Shown here: piece by piece, positions 23,080 through 43,255 of the stretch | Layout of the letters: every line of letters starts with the position of its first letter | How positions within the stretch are numbered: position 1 is the first letter of the stretch | Assembly: GCA_965202985.1 (NCBI GenBank) | Contig: CBDBCF010000001.1 | Span: 1,184,001 to 1,248,000, forward strand | From: Longimicrobiales bacterium | GTDB lineage: Bacteria > Gemmatimonadota > Gemmatimonadetes > Longimicrobiales > Gaopeijiaceae | Reading direction: 5' to 3' | DNA: 64,000 nt | Position numbers and translations under genes: made by a program | The notes under the pieces: model-generated | Databases searched by the model: none | Told to the model about the DNA's origin: nothing | The model's input: the letters and a program-made list of their open reading frames with translations, nothing else

Positions 23080-23128
23080 GACAACTATAGTTGACATTAT
23101 GATATGTTGATATGTCCGTTATGGGACA
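23080..23128. promoter_or_regulatory. A/T-rich divergent promoter/operator region
   Basis: Perfect palindrome CAACTATAGTTG (23082-23093) overlapping TTGACA (23091-23096); GATATGT twice; TGTCC-N6-GGACA (23113-23128). Confidence 0.55.
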
Positions 23129-24399
23129 AGCTGCGGCCTGTTGGGTCGCCTCCGTCGCGCCCCCGGAACGGCGCCTCCGCTTGTTCAGCCAGCTTCTCCG
23201 CTGTCCACTCCGCTTCTCCACCGCAAGGTCGCACGCCGTTGACCGCATCCTCCCCGTTGACCGCATCCGGTGTTCGGAACCAAGTCCGGCGTCGCCGCAG
23301 GGCGCTGGCAATCTCCCAGCAGGCGCTGGCGGACCGGGTCGACGTGTCCCGCCAAGCGATCGGGGCGATCGAGGCCGGGCGCCAAGTCCCTTCGACCGAG
23401 CTCGGACTCCGCCTTGCGCACGCGCTGGGGTGCACCGTGGAGGAGCTCTTTCGGCTGGTCCCGCCTTCGGACATCCTGGCGCGGGCGGCCGTTTCCCCCG
23501 AGCAACCGGCGCTCGCCCCAGGGATCCGAGTCGTGCTGGGTCGGGTCGGTGGCTGCTGGGCCGCCCATCCGGTGTCGCACGGAGGCGCCTCCGCCGCGGA
23601 CGGCGTTGTTGTCGGGACGTGCGCACCGCCCAAGTCGTGGGGGGTGGGACCGGATGCGCCGGCGGTAGCCGTTCGACCGCTGGTGGACCCGGCCAGCTTG
23701 GCGGGCAACGTTCTTGTGGCGGGTTGCGCGCCGCTGCTGGGCTTGGCGGCCCATCACATGGCGCGGCGCTACGCCGATGCCAGGCTGACCTGGGTGCAGG
23801 CCGGCAACGAGCGCGCACTGGCGCTGCTGGCCGCCGGGCTGGTCCACATGGCGGGCGTGCACCTGCCCGGCGACCGGGCGGAAGTTGCGGAGACGTTTCG
23901 GCGGGCGGTTCCCGGCAAGCGGCTTGCGGTCGTGAACCTGACGCGGTGGCGGCAAGGCTTGGTGGTGCCCGCGGGGAACCCGCTCGACATCGTCTCAGGG
24001 GCGGACTTGCTGCGGCCCGGCCTTCGCTTGGCTCGTCGAGAACGCGGATCGGGGGCACACGCCCTGGCGGCCCGGCTGTTGGCTGGACAGGACGCGGGCT
24101 GTGTCGCCCTCGCCGGGCCCGAGGCGGCAAGCCACGGAGAGGTCGCGCGGCTCGTGCGCCTTCGCGCCGCCCACGCAGGCATCGGCGCGGAAGGCCCCGC
24201 CTTGGCCGAGGGCTTGGAGTTCGTGCCCCTGACCGAAGAGCGGTTCGACTTGGTCGCGCCTGCGGACCGGCTCGCGGACCTGCCGGTGTCGCGCGTCGTG
24301 GAGCTGCTGGGCGACGCTGCCTTCCGGGTCGAGGTCGCCCACCTTCCGGGGTACGACTGCTCCCTGGCCGGACGGACGGGCATGGTGGAAGCGGCTTGA
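23104..24399 (+). CDS. XRE-HTH transcriptional regulator fused to a PBP2-like (molybdate-binding-like) domain; true start probably near 23240-23260
   Basis: SQQALADRVDVSRQAIGAIEAG...LGCTVEELF; HMAGVHL, RQGLVVPAGNP, RERGSG, FVPLTEERFDLV. Confidence 0.88.
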   Translation: MLICPLWDKLRPVGSPPSRPRNGASACSASFSAVHSASPPQGRTPLTASSPLTASGVRNQVRRRRRALAISQQALADRVDVSRQAIGAIEAGRQVPSTELGLRLAHALGCTVEELFRLVPPSDILARAAVSPEQPALAPGIRVVLGRVGGCWAAHPVSHGGASAADGVVVGTCAPPKSWGVGPDAPAVAVRPLVDPASLAGNVLVAGCAPLLGLAAHHMARRYADARLTWVQAGNERALALLAAGLVHMAGVHLPGDRAEVAETFRRAVPGKRLAVVNLTRWRQGLVVPAGNPLDIVSGADLLRPGLRLARRERGSGAHALAARLLAGQDAGCVALAGPEAASHGEVARLVRLRAAHAGIGAEGPALAEGLEFVPLTEERFDLVAPADRLADLPVSRVVELLGDAAFRVEVAHLPGYDCSLAGRTGMVEAA

Positions 24400-25193
24400 A
24401 GACGAGGCCGCGCCTCCGGGTCGCGCTGACCCTTGCAGCGGGCGCCGCCGTTTGGGCGGGCTGCGCTGATGGCGAGGCGGCCTCCCCGGCTCGGCAGACG
24501 CTTCACGTCTTTGCCGCGTCGTCGCTGGCGGAGGCGTTTCGGGACTTGGAGGGGCCGTTCGAGCAGCGTCATCGCGATCTGGACGTGGTGCTGTCGTTCG
24601 CGGGCAGCCAAGTGCTTGGGCTGCAGATCGTGCAGGGCGCCCCTGCCGGAGCTTTCGCGTCGGCGGACATCGGCCTCTTGGACTCGCTGGCCCGTGCCGA
24701 AGTCGTCGGCGGCGTGCAACCTTTCGCCGGCAACGAGCTGGTGGTCGTCTTGCCCCCGGGAAACCCGGCCGGGATCGCGTCCTTCGCCGACCTGCCGCGG
24801 GCCCGTCGCATCGTCTTGGCCACGGCAGCCACGCCTGCGGGCGCATACGCTCGCCAAGCCCTGGACCGCGCCGACGCCGCGTTCGGCCCCGGGTTCCGCG
24901 ACGCCGTCATGGACCGGGTCGCGTCGGAAGAGCACAACGTTCGGCTGGTTCGGGCCAAGGTTGCGGCGGGCGAAGCGGATGCCGCCGTCGTCTACCGAAC
25001 CGACGGCCTCGCCGCTGGGTTGCCGACGGTTCCCGTGCCGGCGGTGCTGGACGTCCGGCCGCAATACGCCATCGGGGTCGTCGTCGCCGGTCCCGACCCA
25101 GAAGCGGGGGCACGATGGGCGGCGTTCGTGCGTTCGGCGGAGGGCCGTCGCATCCTTGCGGCGCGGGGGTTCCTGGTCGACCCGCCGTCGTGA
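24396..25193 (+). CDS. modA: Molybdate ABC transporter substrate-binding lipoprotein
   Basis: FAASSL, FAGSQ, QGAPA, FAGNELV, PAGAYA, ADAAVVY. Confidence 0.92.
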
Positions 25194-25200
25194 CCGCTTC

Positions 25201-26046
25201 GTGAACCGCCCGACGAGCGCGAGGCAGCTGGGCGCCTGGCACAGCGGGCGAAGCTTCACGGCCGCCCTTCCGATGCTGGCGCTCCTGGCCTTGCCCGTGG
25301 TGGGGCTGGCTGCGGCTTCTTCGCCCTCCGACCTGCTCGCGGGCGTTCGGGATCCGCTGTTCGCGCCCGCCCTGTGGCTCAGCATGTGGACCACGGCGGC
25401 CAGCTTGGCGCTGGTGGTGGCGGCCGGCACCCCCTTGGCGTGGTGGCTGGCCGGCGCCTCGGGTCCGCGCGCGCGGGCCGCAGCCACGCTGGTGGACCTG
25501 CCCGTCGTGCTTCCGCCGGCCGTCCTGGGCATCGCCCTCCTGGAGACCTTTGGCCGACGGGGCCTGCTCGGGCCGGCCCTGGACACCCTGAACCTGGGGC
25601 TTCCCTTCACCAGCGGCGCCGTGGTGCTGGCCCAGGTGGTGGTGTCCGCCCCGTTCTACGTCCAGGGGGCCGTCGCCGCCTTCAAGGGCGTGGACCCGGA
25701 CCTGCTGGTCGTGGCGCGCACCTTGGGCCGGGGCTCCGCTGCCGTCTTCTTCCGCGTCGCCGTGCCGCTGGCGCTTCCGGGGCTTGTGGCCGGCGCGGGC
25801 CTTGCCTGGGCGCGGGCGCTGGGCGAGTTCGGCGCCACCCTGCTGTTCGCGGGCAACTTCCCGGGCGCCACGCAGACCCTGCCGCTGGCGATCTACGCGG
25901 CGCTGGAGTCGAGTCCCCAGGCAGCCGCGGCGCTGGCGCTGGTGCTGGCAGCGGCGGGCGCGTGCCTGCTTCTGCCCCTGCGCGTGCTGCCCGCCGTCCT
26001 GGACCGGCGGCACGGCCGGCGCAGTGGCCGGCGTTCCCCGGCCTGA
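25201..26046 (+). CDS. modB: Molybdate ABC transporter permease
   Basis: [37 protein letters not shown]. Confidence 0.93.
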
Positions 26047-26049
26047 CCC

Positions 26050-26790
26050 TTGGATTGGCACGTCCGCATCCGCGCCCGGGCGGGCACCTTCGCCTTGAAG
26101 GCCGAGCTTGCGGGCGCCGCCCAACCGGTGGCGATCGTCGGTCCCAACGGCTCGGGCAAGACCACGCTGCTTCGCGTCGTTGCGGGCGCGCACCCGGCGG
26201 ACGAAGGACGGATCGAAGTCGCGGGCCGGGTTCTCTTCGACGCTGCCCTGGGGATCGACTTGCCGCCCGACGGGCGTCGGGTCGGATACGTCCCGCAGGG
26301 ACATGGCCTGTTCCCGCACATGACCGTAGCCCGCAACGTGGCGTTCGGGGCGGGCGCCGGGCGGGGCGCGGAGGCCGGTGCGCAGGCAATCGGTCGCCGC
26401 GTCGCCGAGCTGCTGGAGACGGTGGGGTGCGCCCACCTGGCGGACCGCAGACCCGGCGAGATCTCGGGAGGCGAGAGCCAGCGGGTCGCCCTGGCGCGGG
26501 CCCTGGCCGCCGCGCCCGACATCCTTCTCATGGACGAGCCCCTGTCGGCGATGGACGCGCTGGCGCGACGGGAGCTTCGGACTTATCTGGCGCGGTACTT
26601 GGCCGACTGGCGAAGGCCCGCCCTGGTGGTCACGCACGACCTCTTGGACCTTCGCGCATTGGCCCCCCGGCAAGTCTACGTCTTGGAGGACGGCGTGGTC
26701 GTGCAAAGCGGCCCCCCGAGCGCGGTGGCCGCCCGTCCTCGAACGCCCTTCGTCGCTGCCTTCTTCCAGTCGGCGGCCAACCCGGCTTGA
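26050..26790 (+). CDS. modC: Molybdate ABC transporter ATP-binding protein
   Basis: GPNGSGKT, LFPHMTV, ISGGESQRVALARAL, LLMDEP, VTHD. Confidence 0.9.
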   Translation: MDWHVRIRARAGTFALKAELAGAAQPVAIVGPNGSGKTTLLRVVAGAHPADEGRIEVAGRVLFDAALGIDLPPDGRRVGYVPQGHGLFPHMTVARNVAFGAGAGRGAEAGAQAIGRRVAELLETVGCAHLADRRPGEISGGESQRVALARALAAAPDILLMDEPLSAMDALARRELRTYLARYLADWRRPALVVTHDLLDLRALAPRQVYVLEDGVVVQSGPPSAVAARPRTPFVAAFFQSAANPA

Positions 26791-26797
26791 CGCCCCC

Positions 26798-27556
26798 CTA
26801 ACGGCCGCCGCTGGGCTCGGGCGTCTCCCCTTGCAGAAGCATGTAGCGAACGGTGAACGAAAGCACGCCGTTCAGGAGCTCCGCTTGCGGCGCTCGGTTC
26901 ACGGACCGAAGGCCGGCCTCGTAGCGGACTCCGGCAACGGCCACGCCGAACAGGTCGGTTTCGATCCCCACCACCACGCCAGCGTCGATGGACTGGCGGG
27001 CGAAGCCGAGAATGCTCTTGCAGGCCAAGCCCCCGCGCCGGCACTGCAGGGGCAACCCGAGAGACGCGCCGCCGAGCAGCGTCGGAAGGAGGGACGGTCC
27101 GGGCGCCGGTCGCACCTGGAGCAGGATCGGCAACTGAAGGTACGACACGTTGAACTCGGCGCCGCCCCGGCCGCTTCCGGCCGTGACGACCCGCGCGCCC
27201 TTGGCCGAGTAGTGGAGCTCCGGCCGGATCGAGAAGCTCCCGGCGACCGGAAGCTCGACCACGGCGCCGAGCATGACGCCCCCGCGACGCCCCGCGACCG
27301 AGACGGAGCTGCTTCCGGTGAACGTGGCCGAGTTGAAGCCGCCGATGACGCCGACCGACGGCTGGGCGGCGCCGCTGGCGCCAGGGGCCGCCAGCAACAG
27401 GGAAACACCGAACAGCGCGACGACGGTCGGAGTCGCCGGCGGCAGGGATCCACGCCCGCAGATCCGAACCGCGCGTCGGTTGCGGCCGGCCGCGCTCGCG
27501 TTGTCCCGAGCCGCGCGACAGTTGCGCCGGACGCCTATAGGGGACCGTCCTCCCAT
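26798..27556 (-). CDS. PorT-like outer-membrane beta-barrel (porin family); start uncertain
   Basis: GVIGGFNSA, SIRPELHYSAKG, YLQLPILL, C-terminal SFTVRY. Confidence 0.72.
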   Translation of the reverse strand: MGGRSPIGVRRNCRAARDNASAAGRNRRAVRICGRGSLPPATPTVVALFGVSLLLAAPGASGAAQPSVGVIGGFNSATFTGSSSVSVAGRRGGVMLGAVVELPVAGSFSIRPELHYSAKGARVVTAGSGRGGAEFNVSYLQLPILLQVRPAPGPSLLPTLLGGASLGLPLQCRRGGLACKSILGFARQSIDAGVVVGIETDLFGVAVAGVRYEAGLRSVNRAPQAELLNGVLSFTVRYMLLQGETPEPSGGR

Positions 27557-28989
27557 GGGCCCCAAAGGGCGTAGGTGCCGCTCGGGGTCGTGCCTCCGAC
27601 TTCGCGCGAACCTTGCACGTTGAAGAAGAGGACGCGGCCGTCCGGGCTGAAGCACGATCCGGCGAACTCGCCGGGCTGGGGCGCACCGGCGGCCCGCGGC
27701 GACCGCACCAAGTTCACGATCCGGCCGTCCCGGTCCAGGCCTCGAACGTACTGGTCGTCGCTGCCGTCCTCGCACATGATCAGGCCGCCCCGGGGGCTGA
27801 GCACGATGTTGTCCGGGCTGTCCAACACATCGTGGGACGGCGACTCGAAGACGAGCGTCAGCTGTCCCGCGTCGTCCGACAGGGGGCGGTAGTGGAAGAC
27901 CTGCCCCGCGCGCGCGTCTCCACCGTTCGTGGACACGACGTAGATGCCGTCGTCGCCGTGGAACGCGCCCTCCAGCCGAGCGAAGCGCGCCGCGCCCTTG
28001 GCCACGCCCTGCTTGAAGACGGCCAGGGGGTCGTCCTCCGCGGCCTCGGGGTCGGGGTCGTCGATCTCCACCCAGTGCACCGGCAGCACCGTGCCCGGAG
28101 CCTGGTCGCGGGCGGTCAAGTATCCGGGCCGCCCGTCCACCGCCATCATCTGCAGCCGGCCTCCGGCGGCCAGCTCGCCGGGGCGGTCGGGCAAAAAGCG
28201 ATAGAGGCCGGCGCCGGGCAGCTCGGGCCGTCCGGGGCGCGCCGGCACGTACCAGGTGTCCTCGGTCTCGTAGACGATCCCCGTGTCCGGGTCCACCGCC
28301 ACCGCCTCGTGAACGAACCGCCCCATGTCGCGCAGCGGAACGGGGTCCACCGGGCCGGTGGCGGCCGCGGGCACCTCGAAGACGTACCCGTGGGGCTGGC
28401 CGAAGCCGTGGGAGCGCCCCGACGTGATCTCTTCGCAGGACAGCCAGCTCCCCCAGGGGGTCGGGCCGCCGGCGCAGTTGACGCGCGTGCCGGCCAGCGA
28501 CACGAACTCGTCCACCAGCTCGATTTCGACATCGGCGCCGCCCCCGGCGCTCCCGCCGATCCGCACCTCCAGCGAGGTCGTGCCCCCACTCCCCTTGTCG
28601 TCGTAGTGCGGCGACCCGACGGGCCTTGCCGTGGCGGCGTCGTCCACCATCTCGTGGTTGCGGATCAGCCGCACGTTGCCGTTGGGCAGCGGGAACGCCG
28701 CCATGCCGTCGAAGGCGTTGGGCACGTGGAGGCCTTCGCGGACGGCGGAAGGGACGCCCCCGGAGCCGATGCGGACGCACTGGAACCGCTCCGGCACCTC
28801 CAGTTCGGAACAGTCGGGGCTCGGGACCAGCCTGCCGTAGGGCGCGGCGAACATGTCGGATCGCGCCAGGCGGGCGTCGCTCCAGCGGGCCAGTCCCTGC
28901 AAGGACGGCGCGAAGACGGCGGCACCCCCGGCGGCCCCGAGGGCCTTCAGAAACGATCGACGAGCAAACGGACGGCGAACAAGAGACAT
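27535..28989 (-). CDS. phoX: PhoX-type (DUF839) alkaline phosphatase, Tat-exported
   Basis: RRSFLK Tat motif; FDGMAAF, LIRNHE, NCAGGPTPWGSWLSCEE, MGRFVHEA, SPDNI, CEDG, GEFAG. Confidence 0.9.
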   Translation of the reverse strand: MSLVRRPFARRSFLKALGAAGGAAVFAPSLQGLARWSDARLARSDMFAAPYGRLVPSPDCSELEVPERFQCVRIGSGGVPSAVREGLHVPNAFDGMAAFPLPNGNVRLIRNHEMVDDAATARPVGSPHYDDKGSGGTTSLEVRIGGSAGGGADVEIELVDEFVSLAGTRVNCAGGPTPWGSWLSCEEITSGRSHGFGQPHGYVFEVPAAATGPVDPVPLRDMGRFVHEAVAVDPDTGIVYETEDTWYVPARPGRPELPGAGLYRFLPDRPGELAAGGRLQMMAVDGRPGYLTARDQAPGTVLPVHWVEIDDPDPEAAEDDPLAVFKQGVAKGAARFARLEGAFHGDDGIYVVSTNGGDARAGQVFHYRPLSDDAGQLTLVFESPSHDVLDSPDNIVLSPRGGLIMCEDGSDDQYVRGLDRDGRIVNLVRSPRAAGAPQPGEFAGSCFSPDGRVLFFNVQGSREVGGTTPSGTYALWGPWEDGPL

Positions 28990-29095
28990 GGCGGGGCCTG
29001 CGGTCGCGCAGTACTTTGCTGGGAGCGGGGCCTTGGGCGGGCGCGCCAAGGCGGACACGCGAAAGGTATCGGCGAACAGCGGAAAAGGAACAACC

Positions 29096-30330
29096 ATGAG
29101 GAACGACGACGGACGCGGAGCGGGTTGGAAGTTGCGGGCGGCATGGAACCGGCGCGACTTCATCAAGGCCGCGGCGGCCGCGGGCGCGCTCGCGGGAACC
29201 GGGTGCGGGCCGGGAACCCAGCAGTCCGACGACACCGGCGGCTACGGGGACCCCGCAACGTCCCCACCCCCCCCCCCATGTCGATCCTGATCCTGGGCGG
29301 CACCGGCTTCATCGGTCCCCACATGGTGGAGTACGCCCAGGCCCGAGGCCACGAAGTCACCCTCTTCAACCGGGGTCGCACCAACACGCACCTGTTCCCG
29401 GAGCTGGAGAAGCTGGTCGGCGACCGCGCGTCGGACTTGACGGCCTTGGAGGGCCGCCGGTGGGACGCCGTGATCGACAACTCGGGGTACATCGAGCGCC
29501 ACTGCCGGAGTTCGGCGGAGGTCCTGTCCGACTCGGGGCGCTACGTGTTCATCTCGACGCTCTCCGCGTACAAGGACCTGGCCACGCCGGGGATCACGGA
29601 GGACTACGAGCTGGCCCGGCTGCCCGACCCCGCCATGGCCGAATCCGACGAGCGGACGGGGCAGACCTACGGCCCCTTCAAGGCGCTGTGCGAAGAGGCG
29701 GTCCAGGCGGTGTTCGGCGAGCGCGCCACGATCGTGCGGCCCGGCTACATCGTCGGACCTCGCGACGGCACGGACCGCTGGACCTACTGGCCGGTGCGGG
29801 CGGCGGCAGGCGGGACGATGGCCGTGCCCGGTTCGCCCGAGGACGCCGTGCAGTTCATCGACGCCAGGGACCTGGGCGCGTGGGTGGTCCGCATGGTTGA
29901 GAACGACGCGAGCGGAGAGTTCAACGCCGTGGGACCCGTCGAGCCCGTCAGCATGGCCTCCATGCTGGAGGCGTGTCGGAGCGTCAGCGGGAGCGACGCC
30001 GAGTTCCAGTGGGTGGACGCGGAGTTCGCGCGCGACCAGGGCGTGGTGTTCCCGATCTGGGCGCCGCCGGGCGAGGGCGACTTCGGCGCCGTGCACCGCG
30101 TCGACAACGCGCGAGCCGTGGAAGCCGGCTACACCAGCCGGCCGATCGAGGAGACGATCCGGGACACGCTGGCTTGGTGGAACGAGATCGCGCCCGACGA
30201 ACGGGCGGACGGGATGCGCTCCGGGTTGCGGAAGCCGCCGGAGCTGGCGTTCAGGGAGCCGGCGACGATGGAAGCCATGATGGAGGTCGAGGCCGCGCTG
30301 CTGGAGGCGTGGTCGGCCCGAAACAGCTAG
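29096..30330 (+). CDS. Tat-exported NAD-dependent epimerase/dehydratase (isoflavone-reductase-like SDR); frameshifted at a poly-C tract between signal peptide and catalytic domain
   Basis: ATG 29096 gives NRRDFIKAAAAAGALAG; catalytic frame from ATG 29278 gives LILGGTGFIG, YGPFK, VRPGYIVGP; the frames differ by one base across C4-A-C11 (29262-29277). Confidence 0.85.
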
Positions 30331-30344
30331 CAGGCCGGCCCAAG
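29371..30344 (+). repeat. Direct repeat copy 1 (3' ~960 bp of the epimerase gene plus a short flank)
   Basis: Matches 35221-36199; first ~430 bp appear identical, scattered substitutions after that; shared AGGCCGGCCCAAG after the stop. Confidence 0.97.
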
Positions 30345-30447
30345 AAGTCTTCCTGGCCACAAGATTCCCTGGCAACATCGGCGATCCTCGGGGCTACGGA
30401 ATACGGTTGCAGCGGGCGGGAAGCCTCGTCGTTTCATCGAAAACGAC

Positions 30448-30479
30448 GCATTTTGCTACCATCGAGTGTCGCATATTGC
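30448..30479. promoter_or_regulatory. Paired putative enhancer (UAS) boxes GCA-TWT-TGC
   Basis: GCATTTTGC (30448-30456) and GCATATTGC (30471-30479), 23 bp apart, ~105-135 bp upstream of a sigma54 box. Confidence 0.55.
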
Positions 30480-30582
30480 ACGTTTCTATCGTGACAAACT
30501 GCGCAGGCCGAGGGGTCCACGTGTCTTATAAGTCTTTGTCTGACAATATCTTATGGACTTGTGGTGGCATCATTCGAAACAG

Positions 30583-30598
30583 TGGCACGGAATTTGCT
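30583..30598 (+). promoter_or_regulatory. Sigma54 (-24/-12) promoter
   Basis: TGGCAC-GGAAT-TTGCT, an exact match to TGGCAC-N5-TTGCW, 64 bp before the ATG at 30662. Confidence 0.85.
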
Positions 30599-30661
30599 GT
30601 GGTTATCGACAACCTTGCCCCCCATCAAGCCTCCAAAAGACATCCAGCACAAAGGCCGGAC

Positions 30662-31831
30662 ATGACCCTGCCACAAGATCTGCTCGAATCTCCCTCGGCC
30701 CATTCGCACCATACCAAACTTGAAGGCTGTTGGCCGCTGTTCTTGCTCATCGGACTAGTTGCGGGGTGCTCGGAACCCAGATCGGCACACCAACGCGCCA
30801 TCCCAATCACTCTGCCTGTGGGCGAGCCGGAGTTGGTCGTCACGATTCTGGACACCCTACGTACGGGAGACGGCGCCGTTCTAGCCGATCCGATCGGCAT
30901 CTTCGAAGACCGCCTTGGACGATACATAGCTGTTGATCGCTCCGACAAGGACATTAAGGTTTATGGCGACGATGGAGAGTTTACAAGTACGGTAGGGAGG
31001 CCGGGATCGGGCCCAGGAGAATTTGAAGTGCTTTGGGGTGGAGGCGTCACGCGAGGTGACTCTGTCTTCGGATATGACTTCGCAGATTTATCTGTCGAGA
31101 TGTTCGACGCCAATGGAACCGTAGGGCGAACATTCTCGATCGGCGACGGTTTCTTGGTACCTTCATCTGTTGCTTCGTTTGGCCACAACGCCTTGCTCGT
31201 ATCATACTTTCCGCTTGGAGCGACGGCCGACAACCTGCTTCACGTTGTAGACTTGCACTCCCATGCCGGCCCCCGCTTTGCGAATTTTGCTCATTACCTG
31301 GAAGGAGCTCCCCCCGCCGTTCTGCAGGAGTCCATTGTTCATGCTGACGCCCACGACGGCCTAGTTGTGGTAGGCATGCGTGGTTATGATTCCATCGCCG
31401 CATACACTGATAATGGCAAACGCATTGCTGCCGTGCGGTTGCCCGACGACTTGGTTGCATCCACTTACCGCCGAGCAATTGAATCTAGGGGTGGTGACGC
31501 TCAACGTGCTGACGGTACATTTGTAACCGACAGCATAGAAGCCGTTACGAGCATCTTGGTAATCGACGGGTCAACTGCTCTGGTGCAGATCGCATCCGTA
31601 GATGCCATTAGCCCTCTTGTTGACCTTACCGCAGGAGGAAGCTATTTAGTAGTGCTCGTTGATCAAGCTGCTCAGGTAATGCGTGTAGTATCAATCGGTC
31701 GAAAGAGCTGGGGATTGATCGGAAGACATCAGTCTGGCGATGCTTTGCTGGCCAGGTATGTCGGGGCGCTGTACGATGCCGTCGAGATCGCCTCGGCACG
31801 TGTGCACTATCGGATGGCGACCAATGAATGA
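30662..31831 (+). CDS. 6-bladed beta-propeller (NHL/TolB-like) lipoprotein
   Basis: Lipobox LVAGC; DRSDKDIKVYGDDGEFTSTVGRPGSGPGEF signature. Confidence 0.8.
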   Translation: MTLPQDLLESPSAHSHHTKLEGCWPLFLLIGLVAGCSEPRSAHQRAIPITLPVGEPELVVTILDTLRTGDGAVLADPIGIFEDRLGRYIAVDRSDKDIKVYGDDGEFTSTVGRPGSGPGEFEVLWGGGVTRGDSVFGYDFADLSVEMFDANGTVGRTFSIGDGFLVPSSVASFGHNALLVSYFPLGATADNLLHVVDLHSHAGPRFANFAHYLEGAPPAVLQESIVHADAHDGLVVVGMRGYDSIAAYTDNGKRIAAVRLPDDLVASTYRRAIESRGGDAQRADGTFVTDSIEAVTSILVIDGSTALVQIASVDAISPLVDLTAGGSYLVVLVDQAAQVMRVVSIGRKSWGLIGRHQSGDALLARYVGALYDAVEIASARVHYRMATNE

Positions 31832-32564
31832 CAGAACCCGTAGTGGGCTTCGAGACTCGCTGCTCGTGATCGTCGGCTTGATCGTGGTATTCGTGGCGAG
31901 CGTTGCAGTTGGGTCGCGAATCAGCTGGCTTGGCGAGTGGCTACGTGACAGCCCGTCTATCGCCGGTGAGGTTCACAACGTCCCGGCTGTGGCCGTACCA
32001 GCTCATCGCCGGCTCACACCCAGCATGCGCGCGCTGGTGAACGATATCTTGGAGGACGACGAGACGTTACTGGTAGTCCTGAATGCAGAAGATCTGGTTG
32101 GTTGCGAGGATCTCGGACGACAGTTGCGACGACTCGGGCGGGCGATCAAGCCCAGAAAGATGATGCTTGTTACGGCCGCTACCGATCATGAACGTGTGAG
32201 TCATTTCCTTAGACGCGAACGCGTGGCTGGGGCGGTTGCAGACATTGTCTCATTACAGCTTGCCGGGGATATGGATGAGCACATGATTGATGGGTTTACT
32301 CTTGTGACTCCGGCTGCCATGGTCGTAGACCGTCACGGCCGAATTGTTCGGGGCGTCATGCATCCATACAAAGTTAAAAACTACAGGGCGATTTCGTTCA
32401 CCGAAGAGCTTGGACTATTGGAGAGCGACACCCTGAGCATTGATATTCGCAATCCTCATTCACCCTTAGACAAGAGCGGACCAGCCGATGACTACGCGAC
32501 GCCTGTTGGTGCTTGCCGCGATGGTCCTGTCAGCAGTTTCCGGGCTAGCACTCGGAAGCGCTAG
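31824..32564 (+). CDS. Membrane-anchored thioredoxin/redoxin-like protein with degenerate active site
   Basis: N-terminal TM helix; LLVVLNAEDLVGCEDL (single Cys); VTPAAMVVDRHGRIV resembles the redoxin cis-Pro strand. Confidence 0.55.
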   Translation: MNDRTRSGLRDSLLVIVGLIVVFVASVAVGSRISWLGEWLRDSPSIAGEVHNVPAVAVPAHRRLTPSMRALVNDILEDDETLLVVLNAEDLVGCEDLGRQLRRLGRAIKPRKMMLVTAATDHERVSHFLRRERVAGAVADIVSLQLAGDMDEHMIDGFTLVTPAAMVVDRHGRIVRGVMHPYKVKNYRAISFTEELGLLESDTLSIDIRNPHSPLDKSGPADDYATPVGACRDGPVSSFRASTRKR

Positions 32565-32694
32565 GCCGTCTCGGGCCAACGACGCCGGGTACCCGCACCA
32601 GTGCTTCTACAGATGCGCTGGCTGTGGTGGGACCTGCCTGGGCGAGAACTACATCTGCTGTTGCCAGAGCGGGCCTGGCAACTGCGAGGAATAG
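32488..32694 (+). CDS. Small secreted cysteine-rich peptide (8 Cys in a ~38-aa mature part)
   Basis: Signal MTTRRLLVLAAMVLSAVSGLALGSARPSRA, then NDAGYPHQCFYRCAGCGGTCLGENYICCCQSGPGNCEE. Confidence 0.75.
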   Translation: MTTRRLLVLAAMVLSAVSGLALGSARPSRANDAGYPHQCFYRCAGCGGTCLGENYICCCQSGPGNCEE

Positions 32695-32787
32695 CATCCT
32701 CGACAGGCAGGACGTACCCAGCGCCCATGCCGGTACCGCATCGGTGCTAGCTTGGGCGTGGAAGGGTGACGGAGTTCGTCGCATGCG

Positions 32788-34197
32788 ATGGAATCGGAGC
32801 GGCGGACTCTGTCGCCCTTCCTGAGCCAGCCGGACGGTTGCTTTGCCTCGTTGCTTGATAGATATTTGGTGGTTGGCGGTGCAGAACAGGCGACACAGGT
32901 TCGGCGGCGAGTAAAGGCGCAACTCATGAGAACCCACGAACACGACTCAAAGAGCGGTCCGCAGGGAACCCCATCCAATCGCGAGCGTGTTGACCTGTAT
33001 TTGCGGCTCAGCCGGATCGCACGAGAATACGAGGATGGGACGGGAACGAGCAGACGGTCCGAATTGACTTCAGCCACCCTCGATCTGCTGGGGACAGACA
33101 TCGCGGACCGAGTTTGGGAAGGACCTCCTGACGTAGAGGGACTGGGCGAGCTGGATGCCGTTGCCGTAGCGTACCTATGCGGATTGTTGGAGGGGTCGGT
33201 GGGCGAACGGACCTGTGGGGACGTGAACACACGCCTTGACGGTTGCTCACCGGAGATCGTGACCATTCGACAGCTCCTTCCAGCCTACTCTCGTTCGTGG
33301 CGCTCCGTGCTGATCATCGGTGAAAGGGGCAGCGGGAAGGGTCAGTTCATGCGAGCTGTCGCCGCGGGCGGCCCGCCACCATTGACGATCAACCTTGCCG
33401 CAGTCTCAGAATCCTTGGCGGACTCGGAGCTCTTCGGACACGTCCGAGGAGCATTCACGGGCGCAACGGAGACTCGGCCGGGCATCATCCAGGCGGCCAG
33501 CGACGCCGAGTGTGCACTCTACTTGGATGACGTACCAGAATGCCCCGAGTCCATTCAAGTGCGCCTGCTCACTTGCCTGGACGATGGGGTCATGCGCCCC
33601 GTCGGCTCCGATGAAGTCGTAGCGATCGGCCGGGGGCGGAAGCGGAAATTCCGGGTGTTCTCGTCCAGCCAACCCGGTGCGCTTCACAAACTCCGCCCGG
33701 ACCTCCGGGACCGATTGGCCGGCCTCCTGGTCTTGATTCCCCCCCTGCGGGACATCAAGATGGACATCCTTTTCCTCGCCAGCATGGCGATCCAGCACCA
33801 ATCGGAGACGAGTTCCCGAGTCAGGACGACGAAGCGGTTCTCCCGCGGTGCCTGCCGTGCTCTGCTGGACTACGCATGGCCAGGCAACGTCCGCCAACTG
33901 TTCAACGTGGTGGGCCGGGCACTGACGAAGGCGGAAGGGAGCGTGGTGATCAACACTGAGGTCGTGAAGACATGCCTGCGCGACGAAGAGTGGTTAGCGA
34001 AGCTGAGCGCAGATGGCAACCACCAGCCGAGCACGGATGAGGATGCCCCTTTGCCGACGTTGGAGGAGTTGGAGGCGCGCCTCATTCAACAAGCGTTGGA
34101 AAGGACAGATGGAAACGCAAGCCAAGCGGCAAGACTCCTTGGCGTGCACCGCACGACGCTCAGTCGACGCCTCAAGCGGCGTGGCCAAGTAGGGTGA
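32788..34197 (+). CDS. Sigma54-dependent enhancer-binding protein (AAA+ and Fis HTH) with unrecognised N-terminus
   Basis: GERGSGKG, SELFGHVRGAFTGA, WPGNVRQL, GNASQAARLLGVHRTTL. Confidence 0.92.
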   Translation: MESERRTLSPFLSQPDGCFASLLDRYLVVGGAEQATQVRRRVKAQLMRTHEHDSKSGPQGTPSNRERVDLYLRLSRIAREYEDGTGTSRRSELTSATLDLLGTDIADRVWEGPPDVEGLGELDAVAVAYLCGLLEGSVGERTCGDVNTRLDGCSPEIVTIRQLLPAYSRSWRSVLIIGERGSGKGQFMRAVAAGGPPPLTINLAAVSESLADSELFGHVRGAFTGATETRPGIIQAASDAECALYLDDVPECPESIQVRLLTCLDDGVMRPVGSDEVVAIGRGRKRKFRVFSSSQPGALHKLRPDLRDRLAGLLVLIPPLRDIKMDILFLASMAIQHQSETSSRVRTTKRFSRGACRALLDYAWPGNVRQLFNVVGRALTKAEGSVVINTEVVKTCLRDEEWLAKLSADGNHQPSTDEDAPLPTLEELEARLIQQALERTDGNASQAARLLGVHRTTLSRRLKRRGQVG

Positions 34198-34340
34198 TCT
34201 GTCTTCCTCGACCAGTAACCGCCGATGTCCGAGGTTGAGGTGATGCTGGGACGCTATGCTGAGCCTGTTGGCGGGTGCGGACGGCGGCGGGCGGGGACCA
34301 TGGCCGTGTTCGGCTCGTGTCGGTGGGAGCGACACCCGAG

Positions 34341-34384
34341 TTCCTAAGAGAAAGGGCGGGACTTCCTAAGAGAAAGGGCGGGAC
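34341..34384. repeat. 22-bp perfect tandem duplication
   Basis: TTCCTAAGAGAAAGGGCGGGAC twice, adjoining the 3' end of the ISL3 relic. Confidence 0.9.
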
Positions 34385-34389
34385 GAGGG

Positions 34390-35125
34390 TCAAGGGATCA
34401 CCGGCGGGCGGTGCGGGGCGAGAGGTCGAGGCCGCCGAGGTGGAAGAGGATGGCGGTGACGAAGCGGTCGTAGTTGCGGAAGCCTCGGCTGCGGCCTTGA
34501 CCATCTGGACCCTGCTGTTGATGCTCTCGGCCGGGCCGTTGGTCGCTCGCAGCACGACGACGTCGAGGATGCCCCACAGATGGGCGCCGACCATCTCGGC
34601 GACCTCGTGAACGGGCGCGAGCCCGCAGCCCGACGCCATTGCAGCCAGTGCAGCCAGGCGTTCTCGGCCAAGCCCCGGAGCTTGTAGTCCCACAGCTTCG
34701 ATGCCGCCTCCTTCACCGCCCAGGCGCGGGCGGTCCGGTCCACGTTTCTTGCGCAGCGCCGCGAACGCCAGCTTCTCGGCACGAGTCGTCCTGCCGCGTC
34801 CGGTCAGCCACCGGTAGCGCGTCCTCGCGAGCACGGCGCTGTCCTGCGCCAGCAGCTCGCGGTGCTCGGCGCGCCGCACCTTGTCCACCGCGTCCGCTAG
34901 GTGCTTTGGCCACGTGGAAGCGGTCGAACGTCGTCTTCAGCTCCGCGCCCGGCACCCGCTCCCCCGTCGCCGCCACGTAAGGACTCCACATGTCCATCGA
35001 CACGCTCTCCAACGCGGCCAGCCAGCCGCCGTCCCTGCTCCGGTAGAACTGCTCCAGCGACTCTCAGGTCCGGCCCTTCGCGACATGCAGCACGCGCGTA
35101 CCGATGGCCGCGCTTGACCGACGTC
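34390..35125 (-). mobile_element. ISL3-family transposase relic (5'-truncated, several frameshifts)
   Basis: Fragments in different frames: VSMDMWSPY...[17 protein letters not shown]...[49 protein letters not shown]. Confidence 0.88.
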
Positions 35126-35126
35126 T

Positions 35127-35219
35127 TCGCACCCGGCGTCGAAGGTGGGCTGGCACTCATGGACGAACGGTGCCGGATCTCCCGAAGGAACCTTTTTGCG
35201 TTTCTGGAGTATACGTCGG
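35127..35219 (+). repeat. ~90-bp non-coding repeat copy 1 (promoter-like)
   Basis: Similar to 36330-36421; contains GGAACC-N16-GTATAC. Confidence 0.85.
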
Positions 35220-35220
35220 C

Positions 35221-36180
35221 CGGGGTCGCACCAACACGCACCTGTTCCCGGAGCTGGAGAAGCTGGTCGGCGACCGCGCGTCGGACTTGACGGCCTTGGA
35301 GGGCCGCCGGTGGGACGCCGTGATCGACAACTCGGGGTACATCGAGCGCCACTGCCGGAGTTCGGCGGAGGTCCTGTCCGACTCGGGGCGCTACGTGTTC
35401 ATCTCGACGCTCTCCGCGTACAAGGACCTGGCCACGCCGGGGATCACGGAGGACTACGAGCTGGCCCGGCTGCCCGACCCCGCCATGGCCGAATCCGACG
35501 AGCGGACGGGGCAGACCTACGGCCCCTTCAAGGCGCTGTGCGAAGAGGCGGTCCAGGCGGTGTTCGGCGAGCGCGCCACGATCGTGCGGCCCGGCTACAT
35601 CGTCGGACCTCGCGACGGCACGGACCGCTGGACCTACTGGCCGGTGCGGACGGCGGCGGGCGGGACGATGGCCGTGCCCGGCTCACCCCAGGACGCCGTG
35701 CAGTTCATCGACGCCAGGGACCTGGGCGCGTGGGTGGTCCGCATGGTGGAGAACGACACGAGCGGAGAGTTCAACGCCGTGGGACCCGTCGAGCCCGTCA
35801 GCATGGCCGCCATGCTGGAGGCGTGTCGGAGCGTCAGCGGGAGCGACGCCGAGTTCCAGTGGGTGGACGCGGAGTTCGCGCGCGACCAGGGCGTGGTGTT
35901 CCCGATCTGGGCGCCGCCGGGCGAGGGCGACTTCGGCGCCGTGCACCTGGTCGGCAACGCGCGGGCCGTGGAAGCCGGCTACACCAGCCGGCCGATCGAG
36001 GAGACGATCCGGGACACGCTGGCTTGGTGGAACGAGATCGCGCCCGACGAACGGGCGGACGGGATGCGCTCCGGGTTGCGGAAGCCGCCGGAGTTGGCGT
36101 TCAGGGAGCCGGCGACGATGGAAGCCATGATGGAGGTCGAGGCCGCGCTGCTGGAGGCGTGGTCGGCCCGAAACGGTTAG
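35221..36180 (+). pseudogene. 5'-truncated second copy of the epimerase gene
   Basis: Begins abruptly at RGRTNTHLF; lacks the Tat signal and the GGTGFIG NAD-binding loop. Confidence 0.9.
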
Positions 36181-36329
36181 GCGGCTAGGCCGGCCCAAGG
36201 CGCTGCTGCCGCGCCGGTTGCCCGACCCGTGCGGCCTCGCCGCGCCCGTCTTCGTCGCCTGCGCCCCGACCCAGGGAGCTGATCCGGGCGGCTAGTCCGA
36301 CATCCCCCAAGCACCCGCCGAGGGCGCCG

Positions 36330-36421
36330 TGCGCCCGGCGTCGAAAGGCGGGCTGGCACTCGTGGATGAACGGCGCCGGAACTCCCAGGGAACTTTTTCC
36401 GGTTTCTGGAGTATACGTCGG
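36330..36421 (+). repeat. ~90-bp non-coding repeat copy 2, putative ECF-type promoter of the downstream operon
   Basis: GGAACT-N16-GTATAC (36389-36416), ~90 bp before the ATG at 36506. Confidence 0.8.
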
Positions 36422-37692: not shown

Positions 37693-40002
37693 ATGATGAA
37701 TCGCACCAACATCTTCGCTGCCGCGCTGGTCGCCATCGCGAGCGTGGCGTCACCGTCTCCCACGTTCGCCGCCCAGGCCCCCGATTCGGGGGTCTGGGCG
37801 GTCCGAACCGTGGACCGGCGCAGCGGCGATCCGATAAGCGGCGTGCTTGTGTCCTTCTCCAAGCGCGGCGCAAACAGAGTTACCGACGACCGTGGACTAG
37901 CCGCTGGTCACAAGAACGCTGCTACTGTCCGCGTCCTTGCCCGGCGACTGGGCTACGCCGACCTGGACACGCTCGTCGCCGTCCCGAAGGCAGGCGGAGT
38001 CGTCGTGCTCCTACTCGAACGCTCCGCCGTCGAGCTGCCGCCGCTCACCGTGGAGGCGGAGCGCCGCATGACCTCCATCGAGCTGCACCGGCTCGTGTTC
38101 GACCGGGAGGTCGCCGTCGGAGCCGTCGGGATGACCCAGGCCGAGATCAAGGCCGTGCCGCCGATGGTCGAGTCCGACGTGCTCCGCAGCCTGCAGGCAC
38201 TCGCAGGCGTCTCCAGCGTCAACGACTACTCCGGCGAACTCTTCGTCAGGGGCGGCGGCAGCGACCAAGTGGCCGTGCTGATCGACGGCGCGCCCGTCTT
38301 CGCGCCATACCACATGTTCGGGCTCTTCGGCGCATTCAACGCCGACGCCGTCGAGTCCACCGAGTTCTACAGAGGCTCGATCCCGGCCCGCTACGGCGGC
38401 GCGCTGTCCGGCGTGGTCGCGGCTCGCCAGAAGACGGGAAGCGCGGACGAGACCCGCTTCGCCGGCGGCGTCAGCCTTCTAGGCGTCCGGTTCGCCGCCG
38501 ACGGAAGCCTGCCGTGGAACGAATTCCGCTGGCTGGCCGCGGGCCGCAAGGCGTCGGTGGACGTGGCGCGGATCAGCGTTCCCTACTCGTTCCACGACCT
38601 GAACCTTGGCCTGGAAGCATTCCCCGCGGACGAGCATCGGATGCGCCTGTCCGTGTTCGCATCCGACGACGAATTCGACTGGGACATGTCGTCTTCCGGA
38701 ACCAGGAACTCGTTCACCTCCGAGTGGGCGAACCTAGCGACTTCGGTCACTTGGTCGTGGGTGCCGGATCATCGGATGTCCAGCGACGTGACGGCGTACT
38801 ACAGCCGCTACGACGGCGAGCGGACGATCGGGGGTACCTCATCCTCACCCGTGACAACCAACCGCATCTCGGCAACGGGACTTCGCGCGGAACTCACCCT
38901 TCGCGACGACCATATCGGTGGGCGAGCCGGCGTCGCGCTGGAGGCCGGGCCGGTGGAACTTCGGACCGCCGGAGGACCGGGCGGCTACATGGACGGCGAC
39001 ATGTCCGCCTCGTACCAGCACCTGTCCGCATTCGCTGAGCTCGAGGCGTGGGCGGGTCCGCTCAGGATCGCGCCCGGCGTTCGGGCTGGTAGCGAGCGCC
39101 GTTCCGGTCGCAATTTCCTGGAGCCGCGGTTGTCCGTCCGGCTAAGCAGTTCCGTCTTCGCGATTAGCGCCAGCGTGGACCGGACGTACCAATTCCTGTC
39201 CGTGTTGCGAGACGCTGTCGCACTGGAGCCGGGTGCTCCGATGTGGTTCCTGCACGGCCGGGACGTGCCAGCCTCTGCGTCCGACGGGGCTAGCGTGTCG
39301 CTGGACACATGGCGAGGCGAGGAGTGGACGGCCTCGGTGGCCGGATGGACCAGGCGATTCCGAGCGGTGCCCTACTGGCGCCCCATACTGACCCGGGACC
39401 CGTCAGGTGTCGAGTACCAGGACGGCGGAGCGCAGGGCCTCGAGGTCATGGTGCAGAGGCACTCGGGCCGGGTGCGCGGCTGGCTGTCGTATCAGTGGGC
39501 GCGTGCGGCGTTCGACGCCGCCGACGGATCCGAGTACGCGCCCCAATGGGACCGCCGCCACGAACTCGACGCGTTGCTGGCTGCAGATGTGCCGGGCGAC
39601 GTCGAACTATCGCTACGAGCCACCGTAGGCACCGGCACCCCATTCTGGTTCCCGGCGGGCCTGTACGACGCTCTGCGCTTTGCGCCCAATCAGCGAATGC
39701 GAGACGAAGAGCTTGGAGGCGGCAGTTTTTTTAGCCGCTTCGACCAGCTGATCATTTGGTCGGACAACCAAGGCCGGCTTCCGATCTACGCTCGTCTGGA
39801 TCTCTCGGCGCGTCGTGCTTTCCGCTGGGGTTCCGTAGACGTGATTCCCTACCTCGCGGTCGTCAATGCTGGCAACCGCGAGAACGTCTTGCGGTACGAC
39901 TTCGTGGGAGTTCGCGACGACGGCGAAGGACCGTACCAAACGTTCCGGCACGGCAGGCAGATGCCGCTCTTCCCTTCTATCGGAATCGACTTTCGGTTCT
40001 AG
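37693..40002 (+). CDS. TonB-dependent receptor, copy 1
   Basis: Signal peptide; ESDVLRSLQALAGV, FVRGGGSDQ...LIDGAPV, FYRGSIPARYGGALS plug; C-terminal F. Confidence 0.92.
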   Translation: MMNRTNIFAAALVAIASVASPSPTFAAQAPDSGVWAVRTVDRRSGDPISGVLVSFSKRGANRVTDDRGLAAGHKNAATVRVLARRLGYADLDTLVAVPKAGGVVVLLLERSAVELPPLTVEAERRMTSIELHRLVFDREVAVGAVGMTQAEIKAVPPMVESDVLRSLQALAGVSSVNDYSGELFVRGGGSDQVAVLIDGAPVFAPYHMFGLFGAFNADAVESTEFYRGSIPARYGGALSGVVAARQKTGSADETRFAGGVSLLGVRFAADGSLPWNEFRWLAAGRKASVDVARISVPYSFHDLNLGLEAFPADEHRMRLSVFASDDEFDWDMSSSGTRNSFTSEWANLATSVTWSWVPDHRMSSDVTAYYSRYDGERTIGGTSSSPVTTNRISATGLRAELTLRDDHIGGRAGVALEAGPVELRTAGGPGGYMDGDMSASYQHLSAFAELEAWAGPLRIAPGVRAGSERRSGRNFLEPRLSVRLSSSVFAISASVDRTYQFLSVLRDAVALEPGAPMWFLHGRDVPASASDGASVSLDTWRGEEWTASVAGWTRRFRAVPYWRPILTRDPSGVEYQDGGAQGLEVMVQRHSGRVRGWLSYQWARAAFDAADGSEYAPQWDRRHELDALLAADVPGDVELSLRATVGTGTPFWFPAGLYDALRFAPNQRMRDEELGGGSFFSRFDQLIIWSDNQGRLPIYARLDLSARRAFRWGSVDVIPYLAVVNAGNRENVLRYDFVGVRDDGEGPYQTFRHGRQMPLFPSIGIDFRF
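37927..38504 (+). repeat. ~578-bp identical block shared by the two TonB receptors (other copy 41166-41743)
   Basis: No differences seen by eye across the plug-coding region, whereas the flanks diverge. Confidence 0.9.
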
Positions 40003-40019
40003 AAAGCGAGACAAACTCC

Positions 40020-40928
40020 ATGTCCTTTTACAAACCGACGAAGACGTTGCTTAGTCTTGCGGTCGCCATCGGGTTCCTGGGCGGGTGCGGCAACGCGACG
40101 GGCCCCAGCGAGTACCCCAAGGCGCTTAATGACGGGCTGATCCTCTACGCCGTCCTCAACGCCGACTCCGCCCGTCATTTAGTCGAAGTCGCGGCGGCCG
40201 ATCACTACTCGCGTCCGGCGCTTTCGGGCGTGCGAGTGACGATCCACCAGCGCAACCACGGCCCCACGGGACCCCAGTGGAGCCTCGTCGCGGAGTGGGA
40301 CAGCGCACGGGCCGCCGCTCGCGGCGCGTCTCTGACCGACAGAGACCAGTGCTGGCGCGCCAACCTCGAACGGCCGCGGATGCGGGCCACGAGCAGCATT
40401 GTCTCGGCGACGCACAAGTACTGTCTGGCTCCAGAGGCCCGCCTGGAGCCAGGCACCACCTACCGAGTCGAAGCCACGGCGGACGGTCGGATTCCCGCGT
40501 CGGGAGAGACAACGGTGGTAGGCAACTTCGCAATAGAGAGTGCGACCATATCCGGAAGCCAAGGAAAGTATGCGTTGTCCGGCAACTGGACCTCGAGCAT
40601 CTCTGCCCATCGCTACTTCGTGGGCATCAGGTTGCGCGTCACCTTCTGCGGAAACTGCAACGAGCCGTGGTATACCGTAGTCGACGGGCGAAACTTCGCA
40701 GGCCGTGTACCCGACTTGGCCGTCGACAGCGCGGGACACGAGCCCATGCTGGACGTGGCGGCGGTCGACCGGCACCTGTACGACTACCTCACGACTGGTC
40801 ACCGAGGCAACTTGCACTCCGTCCACCCCGCCCAGAACGTGCAAGACGGTTTTGGTGTCGTGGGATCGGTCCGGATCCGAAGTCGGCAAATCGCCACGCC
40901 CGCGCGCACGCCGCCTGCACCGAGCTGA
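40020..40928 (+). CDS. DUF4249-like lipoprotein, copy 1
   Basis: Lipobox LGGC; LYAVLNAD, PGTTYRVEATADG, GETTV, NVQDGFGVVGS; directly after the TBDR. Confidence 0.75.
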   Translation: MSFYKPTKTLLSLAVAIGFLGGCGNATGPSEYPKALNDGLILYAVLNADSARHLVEVAAADHYSRPALSGVRVTIHQRNHGPTGPQWSLVAEWDSARAAARGASLTDRDQCWRANLERPRMRATSSIVSATHKYCLAPEARLEPGTTYRVEATADGRIPASGETTVVGNFAIESATISGSQGKYALSGNWTSSISAHRYFVGIRLRVTFCGNCNEPWYTVVDGRNFAGRVPDLAVDSAGHEPMLDVAAVDRHLYDYLTTGHRGNLHSVHPAQNVQDGFGVVGSVRIRSRQIATPARTPPAPS

Positions 40929-40931
40929 CCG

Positions 40932-43238: not shown

Positions 43239-43255
43239 AAAACACGAGGCAAACC

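Follow-up and report, generated by a model that had tools for sequence, protein, structure and literature searches.

We analysed a 64,000-nucleotide stretch of the genome of a Longimicrobiales bacterium (contig CBDBCF010000001.1, positions 1,184,001 to 1,248,000; hereafter the window), with a focus on a block of co-oriented genes for a beta-propeller protein, a thioredoxin-fold (Trx) protein, a small Cys-rich peptide and a sigma54 enhancer-binding protein (bEBP). The block consists of two conserved modules, a propeller/Trx/peptide unit and a module of activator, enhancer and sigma54 promoter. Judged from its sequence, the locus is an uncharacterised three-gene envelope unit, joined in this species with a sigma54 activator of a dedicated lineage that has not been described. 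Literature searches, to which subscription papers and supplements were inaccessible, found no paper on the three-gene unit or on the activator clade, and none was found on the beta-propellers of Gemmatimonadota sponge symbionts.

The genome (G000; 3.86 Mb in two contigs, 68-69% GC, 92% complete) is represented in sequencing runs that contain the window stretch, sponge metagenomes from two studies among them. A first-pass annotation of the window had described four co-oriented open reading frames (ORFs), low GC, a Cys pattern and a sigma54 consensus, all of which were found. The A/T-richer block has a GC content of 0.54-0.63 vs 0.685 for the contig; by gene, the values are 55% for the propeller and Trx genes, 62-63% for the peptide and activator genes and 67-70% for the flanks, and 3.8% of the genome's genes of more than 200 amino acids (aa) have a GC content below 0.57. 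The annotation had also taken the block to be a self-contained cassette of four genes, which as a fixed unit is not supported: the three cargo genes stand without the activator in 10/10 other loci read, and the activator-promoter module carries other cargo in all 6 other activator loci. Co-occurrence of homologues, as it had predicted, thus extends across the phylum for propeller, Trx-like protein and peptide and fails for the activator with these three.

The propeller, thioredoxin and peptide unit

A profile of three Trx sequences matched, with E<=0.001, 11 of 401 searched genomes from the phylum (the window's included), as well as three loci in a genome collection. Eight of the 11 places outside the window and all three collection loci were read, with L045, L046 and G261 left out, and one collection locus, L049, was dropped as a chance match inside another gene. 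At all 10 real loci, the propeller gene lies directly beside the Trx gene, upstream in nine and downstream in one, and next to them a small Cys peptide with a signal is encoded. Three of the genomes concerned belong to one genus, and two of the loci to one genome. The window's peptide family was found in six of the 10 loci, and no bEBP gene in the stretches read at them.

The first gene of the unit (30662..31831, + strand) encodes an NHL/DUF5128-like beta-propeller of 389 aa, assigned by profile and structure-family matches and likely to be a lipoprotein (VAG-C36). It scores 21.9 bits against PF17170, for which the curated cut-off is 22.9, and the fold assignment, with the six blades proposed in the first-pass annotation, rests on sequence profiles: 3/7 propeller family members match PF17170 at E<=0.01, and the family profile matches NHL-repeat structures with an E value of 6e-30. 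Among solved structures, the NHL binding domains of TRIM71, Thin, TRIM2 and Brat are nearest to it in sequence. We assign the propeller to a subfamily specific to Trx/peptide loci; a profile of seven propellers gave an E value of 2e-125 for P0104, a member outside the training set, vs 7e-20 for the next best paralogue in the genome. Residues D92, S94, K99, D139, D229 and D243 are invariant polar positions of this subfamily. P0104 itself is a natural fusion of 505 aa that also matches the Trx family (E 9e-36), in the order propeller-Trx.

The second gene (31824..32564, +) encodes a membrane-anchored thioredoxin-fold protein of 246 aa, which has no Pfam match and whose C-terminus is frameshifted in this strain. 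Its model (pLDDT 74, pTM 0.61) consists of an N-terminal helix (24-55) followed by a thioredoxin core, and the best Foldseek matches are CcmG (E 3e-4, prob 1.0), ResA and TlpA. The thioredoxin fold, the cis-Pro (TP motif) and the N-terminal membrane anchor of these proteins were all found, as expected of the redoxin-like protein of the first-pass annotation; the CxxC dithiol was not. The sole core Cys, part of the catalytic-site motif D-x3-CEDLGRQLR, takes the second CxxC position, with LVGC aligned to the CPPC of 3kcm (E 0.14), so the protein is no standard oxidase. At E<=1e-10 the family has 177 representatives. Counted in the best 150 of these, the catalytic-site Cys is present in 149, the cis-Pro in 142 and the first CxxC Cys in 29, so the family is mostly monothiol. 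The motifs GRQLR, RER and H-x5-N-x-R-x2-SF are conserved too, as is a His in 134 of the 150. The named relatives are Longimicrobium records.

The last ~30 residues of the window's Trx protein result from a 1-base deletion after 32473, shared with sequencing run X1, and the ORF overlaps the peptide gene by 77 bases. An extra base at this point in runs X3, X6, X7 and X8, from three studies, gives a protein of 222 aa whose stop codon overlaps the ATG of the peptide gene, with an AAGGAG site ahead. The propeller-Trx junction is an overlap of the same kind. Sequencing error is not supported as the cause of the frameshift, since X1, possibly the window's source, has the window allele. The X7 Trx gene shows 8 changes, 4 silent and 4 non-silent.

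The third gene (32488..32694, +) encodes a 68-aa precursor in which a hydrophobic signal region is followed by a neutral-to-acidic peptide with Cys at 39, 43, 46, 50, 57, 58, 59 and 66, exactly the pattern annotated earlier. In an alignment of seven peptides, six Cys are invariant in 7/7 (one Cys, a loop of 3-11 residues, CxxCxxxC and a later CC), which marks the peptide as a real conserved gene, in line with the first-pass annotation; C59 and C66 are the window peptide's additions to this core, so the eight-Cys pattern is family-wide for six of its Cys only. From the first core Cys onward the net charge of the seven ranges from -3 to +2. The number of Cys is even (six or eight) in 6/7 precursors, and beyond the hydrophobic signal the seven have no conserved leader or recognition motif and no GG site. 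The window peptide has no Pfam match at E<=0.1, and searches of NCBIfam with all seven peptides and of PDB sequence families gave no match.

A profile of six peptides matched 5/401 genomes, four of them training genomes and the fifth, G296 (E 1.2e-11), an independent one in which the peptide lies 1.4 kb from a Trx-like gene. A database search with the window peptide returned only a 99% copy. The peptide ORFs of X3, X6 and X7 differ from the window by one silent change, these strains being too closely related for a measurement of selection. A single-sequence peptide search of the 401 genomes gave 11 weak matches outside the window (E 5e-4 to 9e-3), and the six that were read were chance frames. 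A radical-SAM-like Cx3Cx2C reading of C39/C43/C46 was rejected, as the spacing varies from 3 to 11 in relatives. No linked radical SAM, YcaO or MNIO modifying enzyme was found among the ORFs scanned at 27.5-41 kb (radical SAM and YcaO were not searched genome-wide), and PF05114 (MNIO/DUF692) was not found in the 92% complete genome.

The cassette is one of a repertoire, since in a profile search 96 of the genome's 2,853 crude gene calls were propeller-like ORFs and, of the small ORFs that have a signal and four or more Cys, 11/18 have a propeller gene on the same strand no more than 1 kb away, vs 1.8% of random positions. The Cys pattern differs among each of these 11 peptides. Near the genome's propellers and peptides, the Trx-family profile has one strong and five weak matches; the window cassette holds the only strong one in the genome and the only match of the peptide family. 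A second peptide family, CC-x8-YCC-x2-CC, has four members in the genome (G000 C1 165620, 1890915, 2090568 and 2258216). A sigma54 consensus, with no paired enhancer, stands before another secreted six-Cys peptide and a propeller (G000 C1 2570192-2571700), and a further one before a secreted protein of 212 aa and four propeller genes (G000 C2 828761, -).

The sigma54 activator and the promoter

The activator gene (32788..34197, +; likely start 32926) encodes a bEBP of 469 aa from a divergent clade, with a four-helix N-domain, an AAA+ core with GAFTGA and a Fis-type helix-turn-helix (HTH). Its identification as a GAFTGA enhancer-binding protein was borne out by PF00158 (E 5e-26, over the cut-off) and HTH_8 (PF02954, E 2e-16), and the ORF is unbroken, its GAFTGA, arginine-finger region and HTH all being in place. 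The best fold matches are NtrC4, NtrX and FlrC (Z 18.7-18.9, rmsd 2.4-5.5 over 224-240 residues), in a whole-chain search that scarcely probes the N-domain. This N-domain of ~75 residues is predicted as four helices and has no family match in Pfam, no protein-database relative beyond itself and no Atlas match at 0.9 or more. Walker B reads LYLDDV and not the canonical hhhhDE, with DD in 7/7 clade members vs DE in 22/22 controls. As PspF E108D acts like wild type on duplex DNA (PMC4132715), the DD is compatible with activity. The genome has an rpoN gene.

In a search of 61 genomes at the DNA level, the activator gene was found in two of the same genus (G001, G003) at ~70% identity, and the cargo was not. 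A profile of the N-domain matched 8/251 family genomes, seven with bEBPs and one falsely; the latter match, in G600 (E 7e-4), is an efflux protein and was dropped. A propeller gene lies within ~4.5 kb of the AAA+ core in 7/7 clade loci vs 0/23 other bEBP loci, these controls being all those of G000, G003, G503, G138 and G187 plus six of ~22 in G497. The seven form one side of a branch with support 100/99, with long branches noted. A metagenome scan with the activator gave generic bEBPs at 30-40% identity only (the loci were not read).

The annotated sigma54 consensus was confirmed at 30583..30598 (+), where TGGCACGGAATTTGCT fits the -24/-12 pattern (GG-N10-GC); G001 and G003 have it conserved in the orthologous position. 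The motif TGGCAY-N5-TTGC occurs 16 times in 3.86 Mb, and 12 of the other 15 sites are intergenic. Upstream lie two enhancer halves, the distal GCATTTTGC (30448..30456), 135 bp before the -24 element, and the proximal GCATATTGC (30471..30479), 112 bp before it; the former is a likely, predicted binding site of the adjacent activator. They are the only such GCAWWWTGC pair in 3.86 Mb (spacing 20-26, <=1 mismatch in all), and pairs stand at like distance in G003 (136/114) and G187 (138/117), with one site in G001. Because the pair occurs nowhere else in the genome and is conserved together with the activator gene, this activator is very likely the one that serves the promoter, as the first-pass annotation had it, and it likely acts through these paired sites. 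The A/T-rich tract at 30528..30549, shared with G003, is possibly an IHF-type bend site, its match to what we take to be the IHF consensus being imperfect. No sigma70 promoter was found. Terminator-like sites are at chance level; a hairpin 3' of the peptide stop and ahead of the activator gene was seen without a shuffle control.

The activator gene precedes the promoter in G001, G003, G187 and G497 and follows the cargo in the window. Behind the conserved sigma54 site, G001 has propeller genes, and G003 a different six-Cys peptide and four propellers. In G497 (L144 3840-4112 and 6018-6290) the cargo is a DsbA-like gene and a peptide-propeller unit that is duplicated with near-identical upstream DNA, giving two propellers and two peptide copies; the peptide has eight Cys and belongs to another family. 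G187 (L146 4249-6883) combines the same activator, enhancer pair and promoter with related lipoprotein-like genes that have a weak propeller match, and with no Cys peptide.

Possible function and alternatives

The explanation that we favour, with slightly less than even confidence, is that the Trx protein and the propeller act together outside the inner membrane, where they would hold the exported peptide and correct its disulfides. From the genes, motifs, predicted folds, linkage and controls given above we infer activation, export, disulfide bonding, cooperation of Trx and propeller and binding of the peptide as follows. The activator would bind the paired GCAWWWTGC sites and open the sigma54 promoter on a cytoplasmic cue read by its four-helix N-domain, and the ATGA overlaps suggest coupled translation of the three cargo genes. 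The peptide would be exported by Sec and oxidised by the general DsbA/VKOR system. The monothiol Trx protein could then shuffle the six core Cys into three bonds by transient mixed disulfides while the propeller binds the peptide, the two proteins being a split, order-swapped analogue of NHLRC2/SOQ1. Least certain is the final step, in which a compact, non-cationic miniprotein might be displayed by the cell or set free and serve as a ligand, either for the host or for a different cell. The genome has a VKOR gene adjoining a DsbA-like gene, two more DsbA-like and two DsbD-type genes, so that primary oxidation of the peptide needs no private enzyme. With these general genes present and the N-terminal CxxC Cys missing, the earlier proposal that the redoxin-like protein folds the peptide has to be narrowed.

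Several observations weigh against this explanation. The first CxxC Cys is missing in 120/150 Trx-family members, and as the second CxxC Cys of textbook thioredoxins is the buried resolving Cys, redox activity of the Trx protein is not assured. No Trx of the window's family lies close to most of the ~96 propellers or to most of the 11 Cys peptides linked to propellers, so propeller-peptide pairs generally do not need one. Sequence distances for the propeller, Trx and peptide genes agree only weakly across 7 loci (Mantel r 0.57, p 0.06; 0.53, p 0.04; 0.26, p 0.22). The P0104 fusion is known from a single sequence, on a contig of 3.7 kb, and may be an artefact of read-through, and one database copy of the peptide, also on one contig, has Cys58 replaced by Ser. 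On the side of the activator, the gene is frameshifted in two of the seven clade members (G503, G138), three of the seven come from one genus, and G497 and G138 are without the GCAWWWTGC pair.

Peptide and propeller might instead form a ligand-receptor or toxin-immunity pair, which we regard as rather unlikely. The general Dsb system would fold the peptide, the propeller would be its cognate receptor or immunity protein and the Trx protein a non-redox membrane adaptor, and many such pairs would make a self/non-self or signalling code. This agrees with the 11/18 small Cys-rich ORFs near propellers, each with its own Cys pattern, with the ~96 propeller genes, with the swapping of cargo behind the same promoter and with a Trx family that has lost the first CxxC Cys and strongly kept the non-redox surface motifs GRQLR, RER and H-x5-N-x-R-x2-SF. 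It fits poorly with the retention of the site Cys (149/150) and the cis-Pro (142/150). Moreover, inspection of the 10 loci by eye showed no adjacent gene for a kinase, a chemoreceptor or any other signalling output, most mature peptides carry no charge or a negative one (net -3 to +2), unlike cationic membrane-active bacteriocins, and a leader peptidase/ABC exporter of the bacteroidetocin type is missing at the loci. Such pairing and a joint action of Trx and propeller on disulfides are not mutually exclusive. If the peptide, with its CxxCxxxC and CC clusters, were a periplasmic thiolate binder of Cu or Zn, the Trx protein would keep its thiols reduced or load the metal in the manner of CcmG/TlpA/Sco-type proteins. 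The nearest folds are indeed those of the reductive CcmG/ResA/TlpA proteins, DsbD/CcdA-type genes are present in the genome and a His is conserved in 134/150 Trx-family members. We nevertheless consider metal handling improbable: a thiol reductase requires both CxxC Cys and the first is missing, the 10 loci showed by eye no recurrent gene for metal transport, metal resistance or a metalloenzyme, no MNIO/DUF692 gene was found in the 92% complete genome, and even Cys numbers in 6/7 precursors are as for disulfides.

Some six-bladed propellers are enzymes, and the propeller could modify the exported peptide with the Trx protein as redox partner, in which case the locus would define a new class of ribosomally synthesised and post-translationally modified peptides. 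The dedicated propeller subfamily with its invariant polar residues, the tight linkage and the P0104 fusion point in this direction, but the best solved propeller relatives are NHL binding domains and the seven precursors lack a conserved leader or recognition motif beyond the hydrophobic signal, so we give this class little credence. It is also very doubtful that the activator gene lies here by accident or is a dead remnant, with the cargo outside its control. The gene order is permuted relative to G001, G003, G187 and G497, Walker B is DD, 2/7 clade members are broken and insertion sequence (IS) debris lies beside the block; against this, the enhancer pair and promoter are undamaged, have no second copy in the genome and are conserved alongside the activator, the ORF is intact and the DD is common to all seven clade members.

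The nearest analogues are NHLRC2/SOQ1 and the bacteroidetocin loci, and the window locus fails defining features of each. SOQ1 of plants is reportedly a membrane-anchored protein in which a Trx-like domain is fused to a six-bladed NHL propeller. NHLRC2, found in humans, other animals and some bacteria, has a Trx-like domain and a six-bladed NHL propeller with a conserved cleft between them, a proposed ligand site, and its bacterial homologues showed no conserved neighbours in its report (PMC6107167). The window unit shares with these proteins a Trx-fold unit and an NHL-type propeller, and with SOQ1 the membrane anchor. It differs in that the genes are separate (with one fusion, in the order propeller-Trx), in the monothiol DLVGCEDL in place of their CC(I/V)NC (CCINC) motif, and in the co-encoded secreted peptide. 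As in loci for the bacteroidetocins (class IIf bacteriocins of Bacteroidales), a small Cys peptide gene lies beside a dedicated thiol oxidoreductase gene; unlike in those loci (PMC6671954), the double-glycine leader and the five-transmembrane protein are absent and a hydrophobic Sec-type signal is present. No peptidase-ABC transporter was found among the flanking genes scanned or seen in the 10 loci. The propeller and the general Dsb genes of the window's host are further differences.

Fold, N-terminal anchor and cis-Pro are common to the window Trx protein and CcmG/DsbE, TlpA and ResA, but the former lacks the first CxxC Cys, has 10-18% identity to them and carries an extra conserved C-terminal motif. 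Similarly, the activator resembles NtrC/PspF/NorR-class bEBPs in its AAA+ core, GAFTGA, Fis HTH and paired sites 110-140 bp upstream of a -24/-12 promoter, and differs in having no receiver, GAF or PAS domain, a four-helix N-domain and the Walker B DD. Bacteroidota presumably have neighbourhoods of NVEALA peptides (which we take to be PF14055) and DUF5128 propellers, on which a literature search found no relevant paper. They would likewise place a small secreted Cys peptide beside a DUF5128-like propeller; the window peptide has no NVEALA motif or Pfam match, a different Cys pattern, its own Trx family and sigma54 control.

The propellers of this genome are hugely expanded (~96 of the ~2,850 genes called), no function is known for them, and the locus offers a compact test case. 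The defined promoter, enhancer and activator give a handle for finding the inducing cue, and the three-gene set is small enough for laboratory expression. If a monothiol Trx protein and a propeller do cooperate on a co-encoded peptide, the unit would serve as a model in which Trx-NHL proteins such as NHLRC2 can be studied with a natural substrate, and it would open a new supply of disulfide-rich miniprotein scaffolds from bacteria. A broader scenario, which we put forward as speculation and consider unlikely, is an undescribed peptide code of dozens of disulfide-braced miniproteins with their own propeller receptors or carriers, in which a split monothiol Trx-propeller pair would serve in maturation and a Walker-B-variant sigma54 activator module would capture and swap cargo between sponge-symbiont strains.

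Flanking region and other genes of the window

The block is followed by a decayed ISL3-family fragment (34377..35126, -), 95% identical to nine longer copies in the genome, and by a 5'-truncated second copy (35220..36199, +; 97.9%) of the epimerase gene at 29370-30344, in a strain-variable flank. The X3 and X7 contigs have the first epimerase copy followed by the cassette, with the second copy skipped. As they hold the cassette, the epimerase duplication is strain-variable and later than the cassette, and Campbell-type recombination at the duplicated epimerase was rejected as the insertion route. A depth-3 joint in X1 that skips 30342-36255 was too weak and was not used. The ends of the stretch skipped by X3 and X7 carry a 92-bp repeat (86%; 35129-35219 and 36331-36421) that occurs only here in the genome, and an exact 21-bp tandem duplication at the IS end (34339-34381) is missing in X7.

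Pairs of a TonB-dependent receptor and a DUF4249 lipoprotein form a tandem duplicate at 37693-44164 (+), the tandem spanning 36.4-44.2 kb. The same tandem is found, inverted, near the activator locus of G001, which suggests local rearrangement of a shared region. Elsewhere in the window, a Fic-domain gene (56372-57553) precedes an OLD-family ATPase/TOPRIM nuclease and a UvrD helicase (57776-61674, +), which we take to be a Gabija-like defence pair. Upstream of the block lie an operon like those for molybdate ABC transporters, with an HTH/PBP regulator recognised by eye (23104-26790), and a gene for a Tat-exported PhoX phosphatase (27535-29235).

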